Counted from the first letter of the stretch, positions 39,645 through 49,385 are shown. The stretch is 64,000 nt of DNA from Clostridia bacterium (GCA_017466685.1 JAFTTS010000065.1:4581-68580), one strand, 5' to 3'. Notes: generated from the letters alone by a model not told the origin. Made by a program: numbers and translations.

Positions 39645-39896
39645 TTATTTCGGAAATTTTGAATTTAAAAGATCGCCGGGTTCAACTTCAAGTGCATCTG
39701 CGATATTGTATAAAGCATCAAGCGATATTCCTTTAATCACATTGGGAGCCTCAATTAATGATAAATGTGTTCTGCTTATGTTGGCTTTTTCTGCCAATTG
39801 CTCTTGCGTTAACCCACGAAGCCTGCGAACATAGCCTATGGTTATGCCAAGCTCAATAAAGCGGTCACGATTTTTTATAGTGATTTCTTTTCTCAT
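39645..39896 (-). CDS. XRE-family HTH transcriptional regulator
   Basis: RRLRGLTQEQLAEKANISRTHLSLIE is a classic Cro/C1 HTH. Confidence 0.8.
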   Translation of the reverse strand: MRKEITIKNRDRFIELGITIGYVRRLRGLTQEQLAEKANISRTHLSLIEAPNVIKGISLDALYNIADALEVEPGDLLNSKFPK

Positions 39897-39975
39897 AATA
39901 TCACCCATTTCTTACTGGTATCATGTATATTATAAAAAATTTTTCTAAAAATATCCACGAACTATTAATTAGCTA

Positions 39976-40014
39976 TTGCAAATTAACATGAGCAAATGTA
40001 TAATATAATTTGCA
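39976..40014 (+). promoter_or_regulatory. Promoter of the DUF1273 gene flanked by a 9-bp inverted repeat
   Basis: TTGCAA (39976..39981), 17 nt, TATAAT (39999..40004). TGCAAATTA (39977..39985) pairs with TAATTTGCA (40006..40014). Confidence 0.5.
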
Positions 40015-40051
40015 TATACAAATAATTATTAAGCAAGGAAAGGTGATATTT

Positions 40052-40534
40052 GTGAAAGAAAATAAGAAGCAATATACAGTCTGTTTTACGGGACATCGCC
40101 AGATTCCAAGCGGCGAATATGAAACGCTCGCTGCTCGTCTGCGTGAAGTAGTCGCACGACTCATTGAGCGTGGGTTTTGCTATTTTGGAGTCGGCGGTGC
40201 GCTCGGGTTTGACACGCTCGCCGCAGAGACGGTGCTCGATTTTAAAGAAAAATATCCGTATATAAAGCTGATTCTCGTTTTGCCTTGCCGTGATCAGACG
40301 CGGTATTGGAGTGACCACGACAAGGAAAGATATGAGCATATTTGCAGTCGTGCCGACAAGGTAACGTGCTTTTATGATAAATACAGACGTGGTTGTATGC
40401 ATGAGCGTAACCGTCACCTCGTTGATCATAGCTCCGTTTGTGTTTGCTATCTCACACATTACGGCGGCGGTACTGATTATACCGTTTCTTATGCCGAAAA
40501 GCTCGGTGTTGAGATTATAAATCTCGCGCTTTAA
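40052..40534 (+). CDS. DUF1273 / YpsA-like SLOG-fold protein
   Basis: VCFTGHRQIP...GFCYFGVGGALGFDTLAAE signature. GTG 40052 has an AAGGTGA RBS, whereas the ORF opens upstream without one. Confidence 0.7.
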   Translation: MKENKKQYTVCFTGHRQIPSGEYETLAARLREVVARLIERGFCYFGVGGALGFDTLAAETVLDFKEKYPYIKLILVLPCRDQTRYWSDHDKERYEHICSRADKVTCFYDKYRRGCMHERNRHLVDHSSVCVCYLTHYGGGTDYTVSYAEKLGVEIINLAL

Positions 40535-42707: not shown

Positions 42708-43718
42708 ATGTCTAACAATGTAAAATTTGAGGGTAAGGAAAGACGCCTTGCCGGTATTGAAGCTTGCCTCGCAGAGTACGGTATCAAGGATCTCGAGGAA
42801 GCAAGAGAAATCTGCCTTGCAAAGGGCGTTGACGCTGACGCTATTGTTAAGGGTATTCAGCCTATCGCGTTTGAGAACGCTGCATGGGCATACACTCTCG
42901 GTTGCGCTATCGCAATAAAGAAGGGATGCAAGAACGCCGCTGATGCTGCTGAAGCAATCGGTATCGGTCTTCAGGCATTCTGTGTACCCGGTTCTGTTGC
43001 ATCCACCCGTAAGGTTGGTCTCGGCCACGGTAACCTCGGCGCAATGCTTCTCCGTGAAGAGACAAAGTGCTTCTGCTTCTTGGCAGGTCACGAGTCCTTC
43101 GCAGCAGCAGAGGGCGCTATCGGTATCGCAAGAACCGCTAACAAGGTAAGAAAAGATCCTCTCCGTGTTATCCTTTGCGGTCTCGGTAAGGACGCTGCAT
43201 TCATCATTTCGAGAATCAACGGCTTCACCTATGTTTGCACCGATTATGACTTCTACACTGACGAGCTCAAGGTCGTTTACGAGAAGGCATACTCCGACGG
43301 TGACAAGGCGAAGGTTAAGTGCTACGGCGCTAACGACGTTCTCGAGGGTGTTGCAATCATGCGTCACGAGGGTGTTGACGTTTCCATCACCGGTAACTCG
43401 ACCAACCCGACCAGATTCCAGCATCCCGTTGCAGGCACTTACAAGAAGTGGGCACTTGAGAACGGCAAGAAGTACTTCTCCGTTGCATCGGGCGGTGGTA
43501 CAGGTCGTACACTCCATCCCGACAACATGGCAGCAGGCCCTGCTTCCTACGGCTTAACCGATACTATGGGACGTATGCACGGCGACGCACAGTTCGCAGG
43601 TTCGTCCTCTGTTCCGGCTCACGTTGAGATGATGGGACTTATCGGTGCAGGTAACAACCCCATGGTTGGTATGACCGTTGCTTGTGCTGTTGCAGTTCAG
43701 GAAGGTATGAATAAGTAA
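42708..43718 (+). CDS. GGGtGRT-motif family protein (function unknown)
   Basis: Contains SVASGGGTGRTLHPDN, the motif after which the uncharacterised GGGtGRT family is named. Starts 18 nt after the NifU-like gene. GAGGAGG RBS. Confidence 0.7.
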   Translation: MSNNVKFEGKERRLAGIEACLAEYGIKDLEEAREICLAKGVDADAIVKGIQPIAFENAAWAYTLGCAIAIKKGCKNAADAAEAIGIGLQAFCVPGSVASTRKVGLGHGNLGAMLLREETKCFCFLAGHESFAAAEGAIGIARTANKVRKDPLRVILCGLGKDAAFIISRINGFTYVCTDYDFYTDELKVVYEKAYSDGDKAKVKCYGANDVLEGVAIMRHEGVDVSITGNSTNPTRFQHPVAGTYKKWALENGKKYFSVASGGGTGRTLHPDNMAAGPASYGLTDTMGRMHGDAQFAGSSSVPAHVEMMGLIGAGNNPMVGMTVACAVAVQEGMNK

Positions 43719-43741
43719 GATTTGGCTTTGCCGATAAATAG
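43668..43741 (+). repeat. Direct repeat DR1 (last 17 codons of the GGGtGRT gene plus 23 nt downstream)
   Basis: GAAGGTATGAATAAGTAAGATTTGGCTTTGCCGATAAATAG recurs at 45327 and, from TAAGTAAG onward, at 47052. Confidence 0.85.
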
Positions 43742-43743
43742 CG

Positions 43744-43779
43744 AAACTCCGCTTCTGTTATGTGAGGCGGAGTTTTTGT
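43744..43779 (+). terminator. Terminator after the GGGtGRT gene
   Basis: 9-bp stem AAACTCCGC/GCGGAGTTT followed by a T-run. Confidence 0.75.
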
Positions 43780-43781
43780 AT

Positions 43782-44114
43782 TTATTCACCCAGTGATTCA
43801 AGATAAATCGAAAGTAGCGAGAGTGCGGTTTCTTGGTCCTTTGGGGAACAAGCGTTGAGCCGTGTCCATAATTCTTCGGAGCGCGCCGAAAGTAGTGGCG
43901 CATCCTCGGTTAATATTTCGTCCGGTGTAATATGCAATACCTCACATATTTTTAATACTGTATCTATACGCATATTTACTGTGCCGCGTTCAATATCTGC
44001 GTATGTTCGGTCGGCGATATCGGCAGCTTCTGCAACCTCTGCTTGTGTCATTCCCATGCGTTTACGCAAGGCAAACAGTTTATTACCAATCTTGTGTGAA
44101 TCAAAAATAAGCAT
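43782..44114 (-). CDS. XRE-family HTH transcriptional regulator
   Basis: LRKRMGMTQAEVAEAADIADRTYADIERG HTH. Divergent from the zinc-ribbon gene. Confidence 0.8.
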   Translation of the reverse strand: MLIFDSHKIGNKLFALRKRMGMTQAEVAEAADIADRTYADIERGTVNMRIDTVLKICEVLHITPDEILTEDAPLLSARSEELWTRLNACSPKDQETALSLLSIYLESLGE

Positions 44115-44163
44115 AATACCACCTCAAAATATTACTTTATAGGAAGTATACCACATATTTCGC

Positions 44164-44218
44164 TTGACAAATAGGAACTAATATGATATAATTATATGCA
44201 GAATAGTTCTTGCTATTC
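44164..44218 (+). promoter_or_regulatory. Consensus promoter of the zinc-ribbon/DUF2085 genes plus a downstream palindrome
   Basis: TTGACA (44164..44169), 17 nt, TATAAT (44187..44192). GAATAG-N6-CTATTC (44201..44218) lies just downstream of the -10. Confidence 0.55.
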
Positions 44219-44245
44219 GAAGTATTGATTTTTTGAGGTGAAAAA

Positions 44246-44893
44246 ATGTTTTGCAGAAAATGCGGAAAAGAAATTTTTGACAACAGCGAGTATTGCGAAG
44301 AGTGCAGAAGCTCATCTCAATCGGTCGCGCAAATGGATAACAATGCCACGTCACACAAGAAGTGCTGTCCAAAATGTAAATCTCGGAATTTACAGATAGT
44401 CACAAACACAGAATTTTCCAGCCAAACCAAAGGCGGCGGATATTCCACGGGTAAAGGATGTTGCGGATATATTTTGCTTGGACCGCTTGGTCTGCTGTGC
44501 GGCGGTTTAGGAAGCAAATCAAAAACCACAGTAACATCAAAATCAACAACAACTTGGACTTGTCTTGACTGCGGAAATAAATTCAGAGATATTGCGGATA
44601 TTGAAAAAGATATAGAATCCACATTAAGAACAGCAAAAATTTTTCCAATACTGCTTTATATTTTAGGAGCACTTACGCTTATTTCTGTACCAATGGAAAT
44701 ATTTAGTCTTATACAGTCGTTAGCCTTATGGGGGGGCATCGATTCGCGTGCTATCGCTGGAATACTTCTTTCTGCTATTCCTGCTGCTATTTGTATTGTA
44801 GGTGCTATAGTAGTGAAGCGTAATCTTAACAATCGCCTCTACGCCTTGTACGAGGAGAAAAAAGATATAGAGAAGAATGGATACACCGACTAA
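44246..44893 (+). CDS. Double zinc-ribbon membrane protein (function unknown)
   Basis: CRKCG..x..CEEC, then CPKC...CLDCG. Gly/Cys-rich segment GKGCCGYILLGPLGLLCGGLG and two C-terminal TM helices. GAGGTGA RBS. Confidence 0.6.
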   Translation: MFCRKCGKEIFDNSEYCEECRSSSQSVAQMDNNATSHKKCCPKCKSRNLQIVTNTEFSSQTKGGGYSTGKGCCGYILLGPLGLLCGGLGSKSKTTVTSKSTTTWTCLDCGNKFRDIADIEKDIESTLRTAKIFPILLYILGALTLISVPMEIFSLIQSLALWGGIDSRAIAGILLSAIPAAICIVGAIVVKRNLNNRLYALYEEKKDIEKNGYTD

Positions 44894-45236
44894 TAATAAG
44901 ATATGGCGATTATTTTTTAATATTGGTACAATCATAGGTTGTCACCAAATGCCTGAAAGAAGTTTTTTCATTAAGAACTATCAATTTCCCGTATGTGCGA
45001 GATGCACAGGGGTTCTTATAGGGTATTTATTAGGAATATTGCTTCATTTTGTAATAGGTACAAGAATACTATGGTGTTTAGCTGCTTGCTCTGTAATGTT
45101 TATTGATTGGTTTTTGCAATATATCGATGTGAAACCATCAACAAATTTGCGAAGAATCATCACCGGAATCATCGGGGGCTATGGAACGATTGGTATATAT
45201 ATTCTTGGTATAAAGTATGTAGCAAAATTCCTTTGA
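44877..45236 (+). CDS. DUF2085-like membrane protein
   Basis: GCHQMPERSFFIKNYQFPVCARCTGVLIGY is the signature I associate with DUF2085. Overlaps the previous gene by 17 nt. Confidence 0.65.
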   Translation: MDTPTNNKIWRLFFNIGTIIGCHQMPERSFFIKNYQFPVCARCTGVLIGYLLGILLHFVIGTRILWCLAACSVMFIDWFLQYIDVKPSTNLRRIITGIIGGYGTIGIYILGIKYVAKFL

Positions 45237-45293
45237 TGGTGAGTGCATAAGAAATAAAAATTTTTGTCATCACTAACTTAATAATCCGATTAC

Positions 45294-45368
45294 GGTATGG
45301 TTCTTATCTCCGCTGTTGCGCTCGAAGAAGGTATGAATAAGTAAGATTCGGTTTTGCCGATAAAAAAG
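45294..45368 (+). repeat. Direct repeat DR2 (decayed copy of the GGGtGRT gene 3' end)
   Basis: GGTATGGTTCTTATCTCCGCTGTTGCGCTCGAAGAAGGTATGAATAAGTAA reads GMVLISAVALEEGMNK*, against GMTVACAVAVQEGMNK* in the intact gene. It is followed by GATTCGGTTTTGCCGATAAA. Confidence 0.85.
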
Positions 45369-45404
45369 TTGTGCTGCATTTGAGTGGTACAACTTTTTCT
45401 TTTA
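45364..45404 (+). terminator. Terminator after cassette A (DUF2085 gene)
   Basis: 9-bp stem AAAAGTTGT/ACAACTTTT followed by a T-run. Confidence 0.65.
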
Positions 45405-45563
45405 TATGCAATAAATTTCATAATTTTAGCCAAACCACTTTATTTTTAGAAGTGATTGTGATATAATATCCTTGTCAGCCAATATCTATATAACATCATG
45501 GTTTTTGGATGCGTTAATTCCCATTGGAACACTTTTATTCAAAATAAGAAAAGAGGCAAAATA

Positions 45564-46241
45564 ATGAAAAAGATCAATAGTGTAATTTGGGGTATCATTC
45601 TTATCGCGGCAGGTGTGTTGTTTGCACTGAATGCCTTGAACATAACTAACATCGACATCTTTTTTGACGGTTGGTGGACGTTGTTTATCATCGTGCCCTG
45701 CGCGGTTGGGTTAGTTACCGAGCGCGAAAAAACCGGTAATATAATCGGAGTTGCCGTTGGTGTGTTTCTCCTGCTTTGCTGTCAGGAGATTTTGAGCTTT
45801 TCTTTGCTCTGGAAGCTCCTTGTTCCTGCCATTATCGTAATTATTGGACTTAAGATGGTGTTTACGGGCTTGTTTAACAATAGGGCAAACGAAATCATGG
45901 AGAAGATGAAACAAAACGGTGATGAACCGAAGTTCGGCTGTGCTACGTTCTCCGGCTGTGATCTTAATTATGACGGTGAAATTTTTGAAGGTGCAGAGCT
46001 TACTGCCACCTTCGGAGGTGTGAAATGCGACCTGCGGAATGCCATTATCGAAAAAGATTGCGCTATTCAAGTGTCTGCTATATTTGGCGGAATTGATATT
46101 TTGGTTTCGGATAATGTTAATGTAAAGGTCAATTCAAATTGCATATTCGGCGGAATCTCTAATAAAACCGTTGCTCATAAAGATGCTCCCACTATTTACA
46201 TAAACGGCACGTGTATGTTCGGAGGAGTTGAGATTAAATGA
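45564..46241 (+). CDS. LiaF-like (cell-wall-active antibiotic response) membrane protein
   Basis: N-terminal TM helices, then ATFGGVKCDL...SAIFGGIDILV...CIFGGIS...CMFGGVEI repeats typical of the LiaF C-terminal domain. AAGAGG RBS before ATG 45564. Confidence 0.65.
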   Translation: MKKINSVIWGIILIAAGVLFALNALNITNIDIFFDGWWTLFIIVPCAVGLVTEREKTGNIIGVAVGVFLLLCCQEILSFSLLWKLLVPAIIVIIGLKMVFTGLFNNRANEIMEKMKQNGDEPKFGCATFSGCDLNYDGEIFEGAELTATFGGVKCDLRNAIIEKDCAIQVSAIFGGIDILVSDNVNVKVNSNCIFGGISNKTVAHKDAPTIYINGTCMFGGVEIK

Positions 46242-47047
46242 CAACATTTCAGAAAGTAATCAAATATTTGTCGATAGCGTTTGCACTTTTTCTTACCGTA
46301 AGTATCATCGGAGGAGCTTTAGGTCTTATCGGTCGGCTCGGCGGTTTGCTTGACGGTGATAATGTTATGGAAGATGCCGAGGTATATGCAGTATCCGATA
46401 ATATTACTGCGCTTAATATAAAAATAAACGCTGCCGATTTCACTATCAAGCAGTCGGATAAATTTTCAGTTGAGAGCAATTTAAAGCATCTTACCGTGAA
46501 AGAAGACGATGGCGTTCTTATTATTAAGGAAGCAAAGACGTTTGGGATCACATACACCGATGCCGTGCTTATACTTAACATTCCCGAAGGAATGAAATTT
46601 GAAAAGGTCGATATAACGACAGGCGCAGGCGTAGTGGCTGTTGATGCACTGTCCGCAGACTCATTGACGCTTGAGCTTGGTGCCGGTGAAGTTAAAATCA
46701 ATTCGCTGACGGCAGACAGAAATGTCAATATAGACGGAGGCGCAGGAAAGATCACGATTGCAGGCGGTTCACTTCGCAATCTTGACCTTGGCATGGGCGT
46801 CGGACAGCTTAATCTGATGGCGGCTGTTCTTGGAAACAGTGATTTTGATTTAGGTATTGGCGAAACGAACATCACTTTGATCGGCACAAAAGATGATTAT
46901 TCCATTGACGTTGAAAAAGGTATCGGAAATGTAAGCGTAGACGGCAAAAGCGTGTCTGATAGTGCAGACATTGGCAACGGCGAAAACAATATTGAAATAA
47001 GCGGCGGTATCGGTGCGATAAATTTAGTTTTCGCAGATGAGGAATAA
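46238..47047 (+). CDS. DUF4097 / LiaG-like beta-helical protein with an N-terminal TM anchor
   Basis: Repetitive G.G.v.i strands (TTGAGVVAVD, LGAGEVKIN, GGAGKITIA, GIGETNITL, GIGNVSVDG). ATGA overlap with the LiaF-like gene. Confidence 0.65.
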   Translation: MTTFQKVIKYLSIAFALFLTVSIIGGALGLIGRLGGLLDGDNVMEDAEVYAVSDNITALNIKINAADFTIKQSDKFSVESNLKHLTVKEDDGVLIIKEAKTFGITYTDAVLILNIPEGMKFEKVDITTGAGVVAVDALSADSLTLELGAGEVKINSLTADRNVNIDGGAGKITIAGGSLRNLDLGMGVGQLNLMAAVLGNSDFDLGIGETNITLIGTKDDYSIDVEKGIGNVSVDGKSVSDSADIGNGENNIEISGGIGAINLVFADEE

Positions 47048-47051
47048 AATT

Positions 47052-47081
47052 TAAGTAAGATTCGGCTTTGCCGATAAATAG
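47052..47081 (+). repeat. Direct repeat DR3
   Basis: TAAGTAAGATTCGGCTTTGCCGATAAATAG differs from DR1 by one base (29 of 30 match). Confidence 0.85.
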
Positions 47082-47117
47082 AGCACATCACATTTACTCT
47101 ATGTGGTGTGCTTTTTA
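47082..47117. terminator. Terminator after cassette B (bidirectional with the small minus-strand gene)
   Basis: 11-bp stem AGCACATCACA/TGTGGTGTGCT (one G-U pair), then TTTTT. Confidence 0.7.
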
Positions 47118-47384
47118 TATGTCATGGTGTAAAATTTCAAGCATTGTTTGTGCGCCGAGGCGAAAGGCTTTGATGAATAAATCCTCGGCGGCAACGCCCT
47201 CACGGCTGATTAGAAGCGAAACGCACGCATCATACTCGAGTTGCTTTTCCTCTGAAAGATTGCGGAAAAAGTTTTCCTCGGCTTCTTGTATTTGCTTGGT
47301 TAGGTTTTTATATTCGTCGGTTTTGCAGGGGATGCGGTCGAGTGGTGTGACGTCTCCGGTGTAAAGGTCTTTTAGTATGCTCAT
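47115..47384 (-). CDS. Small hypothetical protein (89 aa)
   Basis: AAGGAG RBS, helical acidic sequence. No family assigned with confidence. Confidence 0.5.
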   Translation of the reverse strand: MSILKDLYTGDVTPLDRIPCKTDEYKNLTKQIQEAEENFFRNLSEEKQLEYDACVSLLISREGVAAEDLFIKAFRLGAQTMLEILHHDI

Positions 47385-47518
47385 GGGAGGATCTCCTTTT
47401 TATTTATTGTTAAGGATAGTATATCATAAATTTTGTTTGAATGTTGACTCTATGGAGTTGGATTTGTTACAAAAGTGTAAATTATGGTTTGATGCTCCGA
47501 TTGTCGTGAGCCGTTCTC

Positions 47519-47701
47519 GCCCTCATCCGTCACGCCGTATAGCGTGACACCTTCCCCCAAGGGAAGGCTTTGGGTAACTCTGAGCAATAAAACGGAATAT
47601 GGTGATATCTCAAAAAGTTTCCGATTCATTTTTTATTCGCGTAACCAACTTTAAAGGCTTCCCTTGGGGGAAGCTGTCGAGCTTGCGAGACTGATGAGGG
47701 C
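47519..47701. repeat. Repeat family A, full copy with a longer central region
   Basis: Same termini and the hairpins CCTTCCCCCAAGGGAAGG and CTTCCCTTGGGGGAAG. The right-end 34 nt match copy 39454..39585 except for a single-nt indel. Confidence 0.8.
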
Positions 47702-47711
47702 TATTCCACAC

Positions 47712-47750
47712 AAAAAATCCGCCTCTTTTTTGAGAGACGGATTCGTTTTT
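47712..47750. terminator. Bidirectional terminator at the end of the aldolase operon
   Basis: Stem AATCCGCCTC/GAGACGGATT (one mismatch) with an A-run and a T-run. Confidence 0.65.
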
Positions 47751-47763
47751 ATATGGAAAAGAA

Positions 47764-48578: not shown

Positions 48579-49385
48579 TTATATACAGGTGTATCCGCCG
48601 TCAACGGGAATACTTAAACCGGTAAGGTAAGCCGAAGCGTCAGATGCGAGAAGCAGGATCGGACCCTTGATGTCGTCGCCGTTTGCGAGACGTCCAACCT
48701 GGGTGTGAAGCGAATACTTCTCTGCGAAAAGGGGATTTGTACGGTCAGACTGCAGACCACCGGGGCAGACTGCGTTTATGCGGACACCGTACTGTCCGTA
48801 ATAGCTTGCCGCATGACGTACCCACGCGGAAAGTCCCGATTTGTCAACCGAGTAAGCGTGACCGTATGCGCCGGGAACCATCTGAGGATTGCCGTCATAG
48901 TTATGTTTTTCAATGCCGATAAGTCCCATCATGGAACCGAAAACGACGATCGAACCGCTCTTCTGCTTTATCATCTGCTCACCAACAAGCTGGAGAAGAT
49001 AAAGCGAGCTTGCGGAGTTAACGCGAACATTCTGCTCAAGCTTTATCGGATCCTCATCCCAACCGATACCGTCACCGCCCTGCGGAATGATACGGCTGCA
49101 ATGGATGAACGAATCGATACGTCCGCAGTCGTCGATAACCTCTTTAACGAGATTTTCAACGCTTGCAACGTCATCGAGGTCGAAAGCGATAGCCTTTGCC
49201 TGTACACCCTTGGTCTCACGAAGCTCCTCGATAAAGGGCTGTGCGGATTCGATGGTGTGGCTTGCAAGGTAGATATTCGCGCCTGCATCGGCAAGAGCGA
49301 GAGTTGCGCCGAGACCGTACATTGCACGGCCGCCGGTGATAAGGACATTTTTGCCCTTCATGCTTAAAAGATCGAATGTATTCAT
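48579..49385 (-). CDS. SDR-family oxidoreductase
   Basis: NVLITGGRAMYGLG cofactor loop, YSVDKSG catalytic motif, and a VNAVCPGG block. AGGTGGG RBS before ATG 49385. Confidence 0.8.
   Translation of the reverse strand: MNTFDLLSMKGKNVLITGGRAMYGLGATLALADAGANIYLASHTIESAQPFIEELRETKGVQAKAIAFDLDDVASVENLVKEVIDDCGRIDSFIHCSRIIPQGGDGIGWDEDPIKLEQNVRVNSASSLYLLQLVGEQMIKQKSGSIVVFGSMMGLIGIEKHNYDGNPQMVPGAYGHAYSVDKSGLSAWVRHAASYYGQYGVRINAVCPGGLQSDRTNPLFAEKYSLHTQVGRLANGDDIKGPILLLASDASAYLTGLSIPVDGGYTCI

Follow-up and report, generated by a model that had tools for sequence, protein, structure and literature searches.

The locus described here lies in a stretch of 64,000 nucleotides from a Clostridia bacterium (GCA_017466685.1 JAFTTS010000065.1:4581-68580), which as a whole is referred to as the window. 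The nearest genome records are Candidatus Flemingiibacterium metagenome-assembled genomes of the class Clostridia. The gene GGGtGRT is the last one of a PTAC / NifU-like / GGGtGRT operon that is common to all relatives, and its 3' end belongs to the first of three direct repeats (DR1, DR2 and DR3). These repeats enclose two compact modules of 1.6-1.7 kb (Table 1). Module 1 (C1) consists of a terminator (T1), an XRE regulator, a zinc-ribbon membrane protein and a DUF2085 protein; module 2 (C2) comprises a terminator (T2), a LiaF-like protein and a DUF4097 protein. An earlier note, made from the sequence of the window alone, had interpreted this arrangement as the serial insertion of small cargo modules at a gene-end hot spot. 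The analysis supports an insertion/deletion unit at such a hot spot, with a duplicated target: an exact empty site, the modularity of the cargo, a cassette array in a related species and integrase-bearing elements at the same gene end all point in this direction.

Table 1. Repeats, terminators, genes and predicted promoter of the locus, in window coordinates.
Feature	Position	Strand	Remarks
GGGtGRT gene	42708..43718	+	Pfam PF14057, E = 3.6e-193; 3' end is the target
DR1	43668..43741	+	genuine GGGtGRT gene end (16 codons and stop) plus 23 nt; core at 43712-43741
Terminator T1	43743..43776	+	left end of module 1; terminates the GGGtGRT operon
XRE-family regulator, 110 aa, module 1	43782..44114	-	Pfam HTH_3, E = 2.8e-13; 85% identical to the copy of species E
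Predicted sigma-70-like promoter of the module 1 operon	44164..44192	+	TTGACA, 17 nt, TATAAT, with TG; 12/12 consensus match only
Zinc-ribbon membrane protein, 215 aa, module 1	44246..44893	+	weak Pfam DZR match below the Pfam cutoff; PHROG zinc-finger matches
DUF2085 membrane protein, 119 aa, module 1	44877..45236	+	Pfam PF09858, E = 1.8e-29
DR2	45294..45368	+	diverged, 5'-truncated gene-end copy plus core at 45338-45367; junction of modules 1 and 2
Terminator T2	45363..45398	+	after DR2
LiaF-like membrane protein, 225 aa, module 2	45564..46241	+	Pfam LiaF-TM, E = 7.6e-15; LiaF-like_C, E = 6.3e-9
DUF4097 (LiaG-like) protein, 269 aa, module 2	46238..47047	+	Pfam PF13349, E = 3.5e-7
DR3	47052..47081	+	core alone; same sequence as the one core at the empty site in species B
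Terminator T3	47080..47114	+	original host terminator of the operon
DUF6809 gene	47115..47384	-	Pfam PF20648, E = 9e-17; conserved right flank, outside the insert; directly after GGGtGRT in species B and C

The repeats have a 30-nt core in common, TAAGTAAGATTCGGCTTTGCCGATAAATAG, which is found with one mismatch in DR1, with three in DR2 and without any in DR3, where a plain repeat of the core had indeed been reported. These are the only three copies in the window, and 100 shuffles gave no match. The earlier note had located all three repeats correctly and, for DR1, had counted 17 codons in front of the stop instead of 16. Its description of DR2 as a decayed copy of the gene end withstood a proper alignment: with the core excluded, the sequence upstream yielded an in-register local alignment with the gene end that has a score of 30, whereas the best of 500 shuffles reached 23. 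The corresponding frame of DR2 reads GMVLISAVALEEGMNK up to the stop codon and extends no further than another stop, four codons upstream. At DR3, the alignment of the repeats revealed no gene-end extension.

The mismatches between DR1 and DR2 are clustered, with 13 in the first 32 nt and only three in the following 39 (p = 0.0014), and the block of near-identity has a length of 42 nt (GAAGGTATGAATAAGTAAGATTCGGCTTTGCCGATAAATAG). A divergence edge of this sharpness is expected beside a crossover or an identity segment and not from uniform decay. Furthermore, the peptide encoded by DR2 agrees with none of the approximately 80 GGGtGRT C-termini compared and contains non-conservative changes at positions that are invariant in these homologues. 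A natural GGGtGRT gene as donor of this end was rejected for this reason; judged from these substitutions, DR2 looks like the drifting arm of an att site belonging to the element, rather than like a recently duplicated host gene end.

Contigs that encode the exactly identical GGGtGRT protein fall into two classes, filled and empty. The filled class (species A) is represented by the window and by L001-L004, which are 99.9-100% identical over 12 kb and contain module 1, DR2, module 2, DR3 and the DUF6809 gene after GGGtGRT. In the empty class (species B; L005, L006), GGGtGRT is followed by one core that is identical to DR3, by a terminator homologous to T3 and by the DUF6809 gene. The alignment of the window with species B stops at 43741 and is taken up again at 47052; DR1 and DR3 both align with the one 30-nt core that species B possesses. 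The difference in size is exactly 3,340 nt, which is the 3,310-nt insert plus one core. With a nucleotide identity of about 93% in the flanks, species B is a sister species and not a strain of species A. The empty layout also exists in species C (L008), where the hairpin and the terminator have diverged and the 5-bp hairpin is a different one; because the empty site occurs with this diverged hairpin and terminator as well, the empty state itself is not recent.

Five further species differ in what follows GGGtGRT. Species D (L007) contains an XRE-YpsA cassette and then an ABC transporter gene, species E (L102, L103) module 1 alone and then an ABC transporter gene, and species F (L106) module 1 alone and then an Impact_N gene. 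Species H (L128) possesses module 1 alone, and species G (L125-L127) a cassette array with gene-end copies as separators. The expectation that relatives would offer empty sites and alternative cargo, rather than one uniform gene order, is thus borne out by the exact empty site of the sister species and by differing layouts with other cargo in the same slot.

Folding showed that every repeat forms a 5-bp hairpin (TCGGC-TTT-GCCGA) and is followed by a strong terminator, which is different at each repeat, as had been proposed. The claim that G-U wobbles preserve the hairpin is correct, but it concerns just two C-to-T changes and is weak evidence. Orthologues of T3 are the terminator immediately behind the core in species B and the variant hairpin of species C. 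Each of the three copies of the repeat lies where a transcription unit on the plus strand ends, directly in front of the terminator. This position, the preserved pairing and the different 5-bp hairpin at the equivalent place in species C would be compatible with a regulatory RNA or a protein-binding motif in the 3' untranslated region of three operons, which would then not mark an insertion boundary. Yet DR2 contains GGGtGRT coding sequence, the boundaries of the repeats are the exact edges of the insertion or deletion relative to species B, and the hairpin is missing in species D, F and H. In addition, neither the rest of the window nor the public collections that were searched contained a further copy of the motif, and Rfam gave no relevant match. 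An explanation by such a motif is therefore very improbable.

The earlier note had further compared the locus with integrative mobile elements exploiting Xer recombination (IMEX), which likewise form integrase-less tandems and regenerate their site. A dif site consists of a XerC arm, a spacer of 6-8 nt and a XerD arm, and is located at the replication terminus. The core has only the dyad of 5 bp with a 3-nt spacer; compared with the dif consensus, it possesses neither a conserved XerD-arm sequence nor the 11-6-11 architecture. Across the window, the cumulative GC skew shows a monotonic rise without a switch, so that the site is not at the terminus; moreover, it is a protein-coding gene's end, which differs between species. 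The comparison with IMEX thus fails in everything but the formal layout, and integration by host Xer recombinases at a dif-like site has the smallest probability of all explanations considered.

Both modules are richer in AT than their surroundings, as had been suspected: the G+C content of the two segments is 38.1% and 40.9%, compared to 50.2% and 49.4% in the flanks. The gene calls of the earlier note for both segments agree with Pfam for every gene, although only weakly for the double zinc ribbon. No recombinase or transfer domains were detected in the five cargo genes by means of Pfam, PHROG and PADLOC, and the search for defence systems with PHROG and PADLOC gave only generic HTH and zinc-finger matches. 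A transposon or insertion sequence was rejected, since there are no bounding inverted repeats and no transposase-like open reading frame, and the duplication comprises 30-75 nt. The closest homologues of C2 (71-75% identity for the DUF4097 protein) occur in other contexts, which were LiaF-DUF4097-ABC operons in two of the three loci inspected. A homologue of C2 was never found beside GGGtGRT elsewhere, no core lies near the inspected loci, and no donor was identified. The low G+C content of the modules and the unrelated contexts of the C2 relatives count in favour of an insertion of foreign cargo. Exact-protein look-ups of the cargo proteins returned the same filled locus only, and their matches in IMG/VR were limited to zinc-ribbon N-termini. 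Two groups of database matches were set aside. The GenBank entry "Bacteriophage sp." MT836003 starts with a gene-end fragment and looks like a fragment of a host chromosome; the plasmid matches represent complete copies of GGGtGRT carried by large replicons and are uninformative.

In species E, F, G and H, homologues of the zinc-ribbon protein with 60-72% identity are encoded right behind GGGtGRT. They are followed by a DUF2085 gene and are not accompanied by module 2. The compact three-gene unit thus recurs in five species (A, E, F, G and H), and the genes downstream of it differ among E, F and H. At the left junction, species E (L102) has retained a core-like sequence and, after it, a homologue of T1. 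Species A and E share the 110-residue XRE regulator, whereas F, G and H carry an unrelated one of 63-79 residues. Between F and G, the XRE proteins are 97% identical and the zinc-ribbon proteins 68%, a contrast that points to the gene-proximal end having been exchanged recently in this cassette. The slot that holds C1 in species E is occupied by the XRE-YpsA pair in species D. The two species are 97% identical until 5 nt past the stop codon of GGGtGRT, unrelated across the cassettes, and homologous again in front of the ABC transporter gene, where the identity of the right flank is 81%.

The array of species G begins with the end of a YpsA-like gene (L125 1-219), a gene-end copy with an internal deletion, a terminator and module 1. 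It continues with an 80-nt gene-end copy that still reads LIGAGNNPMVGMTVACAVAIEEAMK and a stop, a terminator, and a second XRE/zinc-ribbon/DUF2085 cassette. An XRE gene and a YpsA/SLOG gene are also found upstream of the operon in the window (~39650-40534); in species D, the pair lies directly after the GGGtGRT stop (L007 3817-4713). In these positions, the XRE-YpsA pair looks like one more cassette belonging to this system. More distant zinc-ribbon homologues (45-47% identity) occur in unrelated contexts. One distant XRE/zinc-ribbon module (L111 5657-10022; 47% identity) lies beside an aldehyde dehydrogenase, BMC and PTAC cluster, and the PTAC neighbour echoes the PTAC gene at the head of the GGGtGRT operon of the window.

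The uniform design of the cassettes in five species, the array of species G and the exchange of cassettes between D and E would fit a dedicated cassette platform at the GGGtGRT stop region in gut Clostridia, where a recombinase acting in trans inserts, stacks and swaps cassettes. The cassettes would be self-regulated (XRE with membrane proteins, XRE with YpsA, LiaF-like with DUF4097), each having a terminator and a short att site, and the recombinase would be supplied from elsewhere in the genome or by a helper element. Such a platform would be functionally analogous to the SCC or integron arrays discussed below, on a different target and with a different enzyme. The proposal is weakened by the fact that the recombinase was not identified and by the age of C1, and it is regarded as unlikely.

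An old age of C1 is suggested by its divergence between species, which amounts to 71-77% nucleotide identity and is about that of the ordinary neighbour ClpP (74-75%). The match between the divergence of C1 and that of the species would suit an ancestral filled locus, from which the empty sites of species B and C would have arisen when DR1 recombined with DR3; the lineage of the window would then have received no insertion at all. Precise deletion is a known effect of direct repeats, and the layout is stable in a strain with 2% divergence. However, species C is empty too and contains a diverged but homologous hairpin and T3, which marks the empty state as old. Moreover, both modules are compositionally foreign, and the origin of DR2 and DR3 is left unexplained. 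This course of events is improbable; it concerns the direction of the change only and is compatible with either mechanism of insertion considered below.

In order to assess the gene end in a wider context, about 75 species-level loci with a complete gene end were surveyed, and random 130-nt segments of the same loci served as a control. A direct repeat of the own gene end was present downstream in five of the 75 loci, compared to seven of 431 random segments (Fisher p = 0.02). In L010, a 24-nt gene-end repeat bounds a 1.4-kb insert with one gene and no integrase. In L031 (10940-11070), about 50 nt of the gene end are duplicated in tandem 15 nt past the stop, with nothing between the copies; in L027 (10990-11260), a repeat of at least 55 nt lies 200 nt downstream and runs into a stretch of N. 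The repeats of L031 and L027 could be scars that lost elements left behind, or artefacts of the assembly. L060 contains a duplicated terminator.

Integrases are found at the same gene end. In L078, a gene-end copy of at least 71 nt is located 10 kb downstream, and the insert begins with a tyrosine integrase gene (PF00589, E = 4e-31) 150 nt past the stop and also contains WYL and resolvase genes. A related integrase follows about 100 nt past the stop in L083. An integrase of a different type is encoded immediately after GGGtGRT in L115 and L116 (IMG/VR). The same type is present in L119 and L120, which are circular, circularly permuted contigs of 7.75 kb with terminal overlaps of 99 nt. Both carry a 170-nt 5'-truncated copy of the gene end, as would be expected of an attP site. 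At least two families of integrases thus genuinely use the 3' end of GGGtGRT as an attachment site. Matches to serine recombinases in the scanned loci were confined to the small resolvase of the L078 element and a weaker match in L047, both 5 kb downstream; none was found in the window or directly beside GGGtGRT.

Taken together, these findings are best explained by recombinase-less, att-flanked islets that were added in tandem at an attB-like hot spot by a recombinase acting in trans, a reading to which a probability of roughly 0.55 is assigned. The hot spot would comprise the last GGGtGRT codons and about 23 nt past the stop. Two modules without a recombinase of their own would have been inserted there in tandem, each bounded by copies of the target, such that DR1 would be attL-like, DR2 a hybrid junction and DR3 attR-like. 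Recombination would have been conservative and would have taken place inside the identity block of approximately 30-42 nt, with the enzyme being encoded elsewhere, as for cis-mobilizable elements and pseudo-SCC elements (see below). The terminator beside each junction would leave the operon intact and properly terminated, while the original terminator T3 would have been pushed downstream. C1, which is nearest to the gene, would have arrived last, and its decayed gene-end copy would now be part of DR2. We infer the recombinase origin of the junctions, this order of events and any mobility of the modules at present. The strongest internal argument for tandem addition by a recombinase is the uneven divergence of DR1 and DR2.

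Several observations weigh against this reading. No tyrosine or serine recombinase was detected in the 64-kb window with three probe proteins, in agreement with the earlier note, and no recombinase linked to the 30-nt core was identified. The integrase-bearing elements at the gene end belong to other taxa and have different sequences; none of them contains the 30-nt core and none is from this genus. The core gave six matches in JGI metagenomes, all of them due to chance (unrelated coding sequence or a terminator). In IMG/VR, it gave one chance match and its junction with the gene end none. Within the modules there are no remnants of a larger decayed element, and no right-hand repeat follows C1 in species E, F and H. 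Among the loci examined, C2 never occurs alone, nor is there one with the same flanks in which C1 is followed by a right-hand repeat. None of the species A contigs, one with 2% divergence included, displays another layout or a sign of excision. Given the degree of its divergence, C1 may have been present for a long time and been passed on vertically instead of having moved recently. Finally, the repeats differ in extent among species, reaching from 90 nt ahead of the stop to 40 nt or more beyond it, which would fit several recombinases or homology-driven events.

Some of these observations would be accounted for more easily by homology-driven capture without a dedicated recombinase, anchored in the extremely conserved GGGtGRT gene. 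Fragments from relatives would begin in the gene end of the donor and bring along its downstream neighbours, either by a Campbell-type single crossover of a circularised fragment or by homology-facilitated illegitimate recombination, and the duplicated gene end would be a by-product. Later RecA recombination between the repeats would produce precise deletions such as the state of species B. As C1 natively adjoins GGGtGRT in species E, F and H, without a right-hand repeat, a donor fragment extending from the gene end across C1 would naturally supply C1 with a gene-end copy behind it, and the differing lengths and positions of the repeats among species as well as the missing recombinase agree with such a process. 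The same applies to the restriction of gene-end copies to DR2 and to the spaces between the cassettes of the G array, and to the mosaic composition of C1 in F and G. This mosaic and the higher identity of D and E in the GGGtGRT DNA than in the right flank both point to frequent homologous exchange anchored in the gene. On the other hand, the changed invariant positions make the copy in DR2 implausible as a functional donor end, and the 30 nt of DR3 are short for RecA-dependent integration. In addition, none of the relatives of C2 is linked to GGGtGRT, so that a donor is missing among them, and this gene end is in fact used by bona fide integrase elements that carry attP-like copies of it. Homology-driven capture is considered a serious alternative, but a less likely one than insertion by a recombinase acting in trans.

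Elements that lack genes for integration and transfer, retain attL and attR and accrete in tandem are classified as cis-mobilizable elements (CIMEs; PMC5704250). For example, islands related to ICESt1 at fda of Streptococcus thermophilus have the same tandem layout at the 3' end of the target gene, with a gene end at each junction. The layout of the window agrees with this published definition: the att-like repeats DR1 to DR3 form the boundaries, their edges are those of the empty site in species B, recombinase and transfer domains are missing from the five cargo genes, and the scan of the 64-kb window gave no recombinase. At fda, integrase-bearing elements share the target; at GGGtGRT, integrase elements use the same gene end in other taxa, and no cognate integrase-bearing element with the core of the window is known. 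CIMEs are decayed integrative and conjugative or integrative and mobilizable elements. In contrast, the modules of the window show no trace of such a decay, their cargo is unrelated to that of the L078 and L119 elements, and C1 is a compact unit that recurs in five species.

Composite islands of staphylococcal cassette chromosome (SCC) and pseudo-SCC elements at rlmH (orfX) consist of tandem cassettes, some of which are recombinase-less and depend on a recombinase acting in trans (PMC7029136). As in the window, the very end (3') of a conserved housekeeping gene is the place of insertion, and the repeats comprise the last codons and the stop. However, SCC elements use rlmH and the Ccr large serine recombinases, whereas the target here is GGGtGRT, no Ccr-like gene was seen, and other taxa have integrases of the tyrosine recombinase type at this gene end; the analogy is one of layout only. 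The window locus is therefore strictly a member of neither the CIME nor the SCC family. The left edge of the identity block of DR1 and DR2, GAAGGTATGAATAAGTAA (43700-43717 and 45326-45343), matches staphylococcal direct repeats at rlmH (e.g. GAAGCGTATAATAAGTAA) in 13 of 18 positions. This comparison was made post hoc, and the likeness is probably a coincidence of two gene ends that both finish with Lys and a stop.

Integrative elements and prophages that target the 3' ends of tRNA or protein genes, with a replacement for the gene end in their attP, likewise leave an intact target and a 5'-truncated distal copy, and have circular forms with a copy, such as L119 and L120. The modules of the window differ from them in lacking integrase, excisionase, replication and transfer genes. 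Integron cassettes resemble the modules in being small cargo stacked in one orientation at one site. Their attC sites, however, have a length of 57-141 nt and RYYYAAC and GTTRRRY ends, whereas the repeat of the window comprises 30 nt without such ends. Moreover, integron cassettes are mostly promoterless, whereas the locus has its own (predicted) promoter, regulator and terminators and no adjacent intI, attI or Pc. With no attC-like site, no adjacent integrase and cassettes that have their own promoters, the integron reading was rejected, and the resemblance to cassette-type elements suggested by the earlier note does not hold in this sense.

The locus is a familiar genome architecture at a target that has not been described before; among the papers found to mention GGGtGRT, no title or abstract names the 3' end of the gene as an integration site. 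GGGtGRT is a highly conserved protein of gut anaerobes with unknown function, which appears in the gut and rumen metaproteome literature. As a recurrent attachment site, the end of its gene can serve as a landmark for small islets, prophages and integrative elements in metagenome assemblies of Oscillospirales and Bacteroidota. The filled, empty and swapped states constitute a natural set for studying the movement of recombinase-less cassettes. In the window itself, the proposed insertion accounts for an AT-rich insert of 3.3 kb that leaves the operon intact.

A GC-rich spacer rich in inverted repeats lies between the DUF6809 gene and an HpcH aldolase gene (47440-47760). It contains inverted-repeat arms of 31 nt at 47541-47571 and 47653-47683, and its weak serC-leader match in Rfam (E = 0.16) is probably noise. 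GC-rich blocks of similar appearance lie beside the variable slot in species B (L005 4500-4990), D (L007 4713-5100) and E (L102 3640-3990). A perfect inverted match of 17 nt, ATGATGGGACTTATCGG, connects GGGtGRT (43629-43645) with a short-chain dehydrogenase gene at a distance of 5 kb (48916-48932) and is likely a coincidence, because both genes encode MMGLIG. The bases of ATGATGGGACTTATCGG also begin the gene-end repeat of the integrase element in L078.

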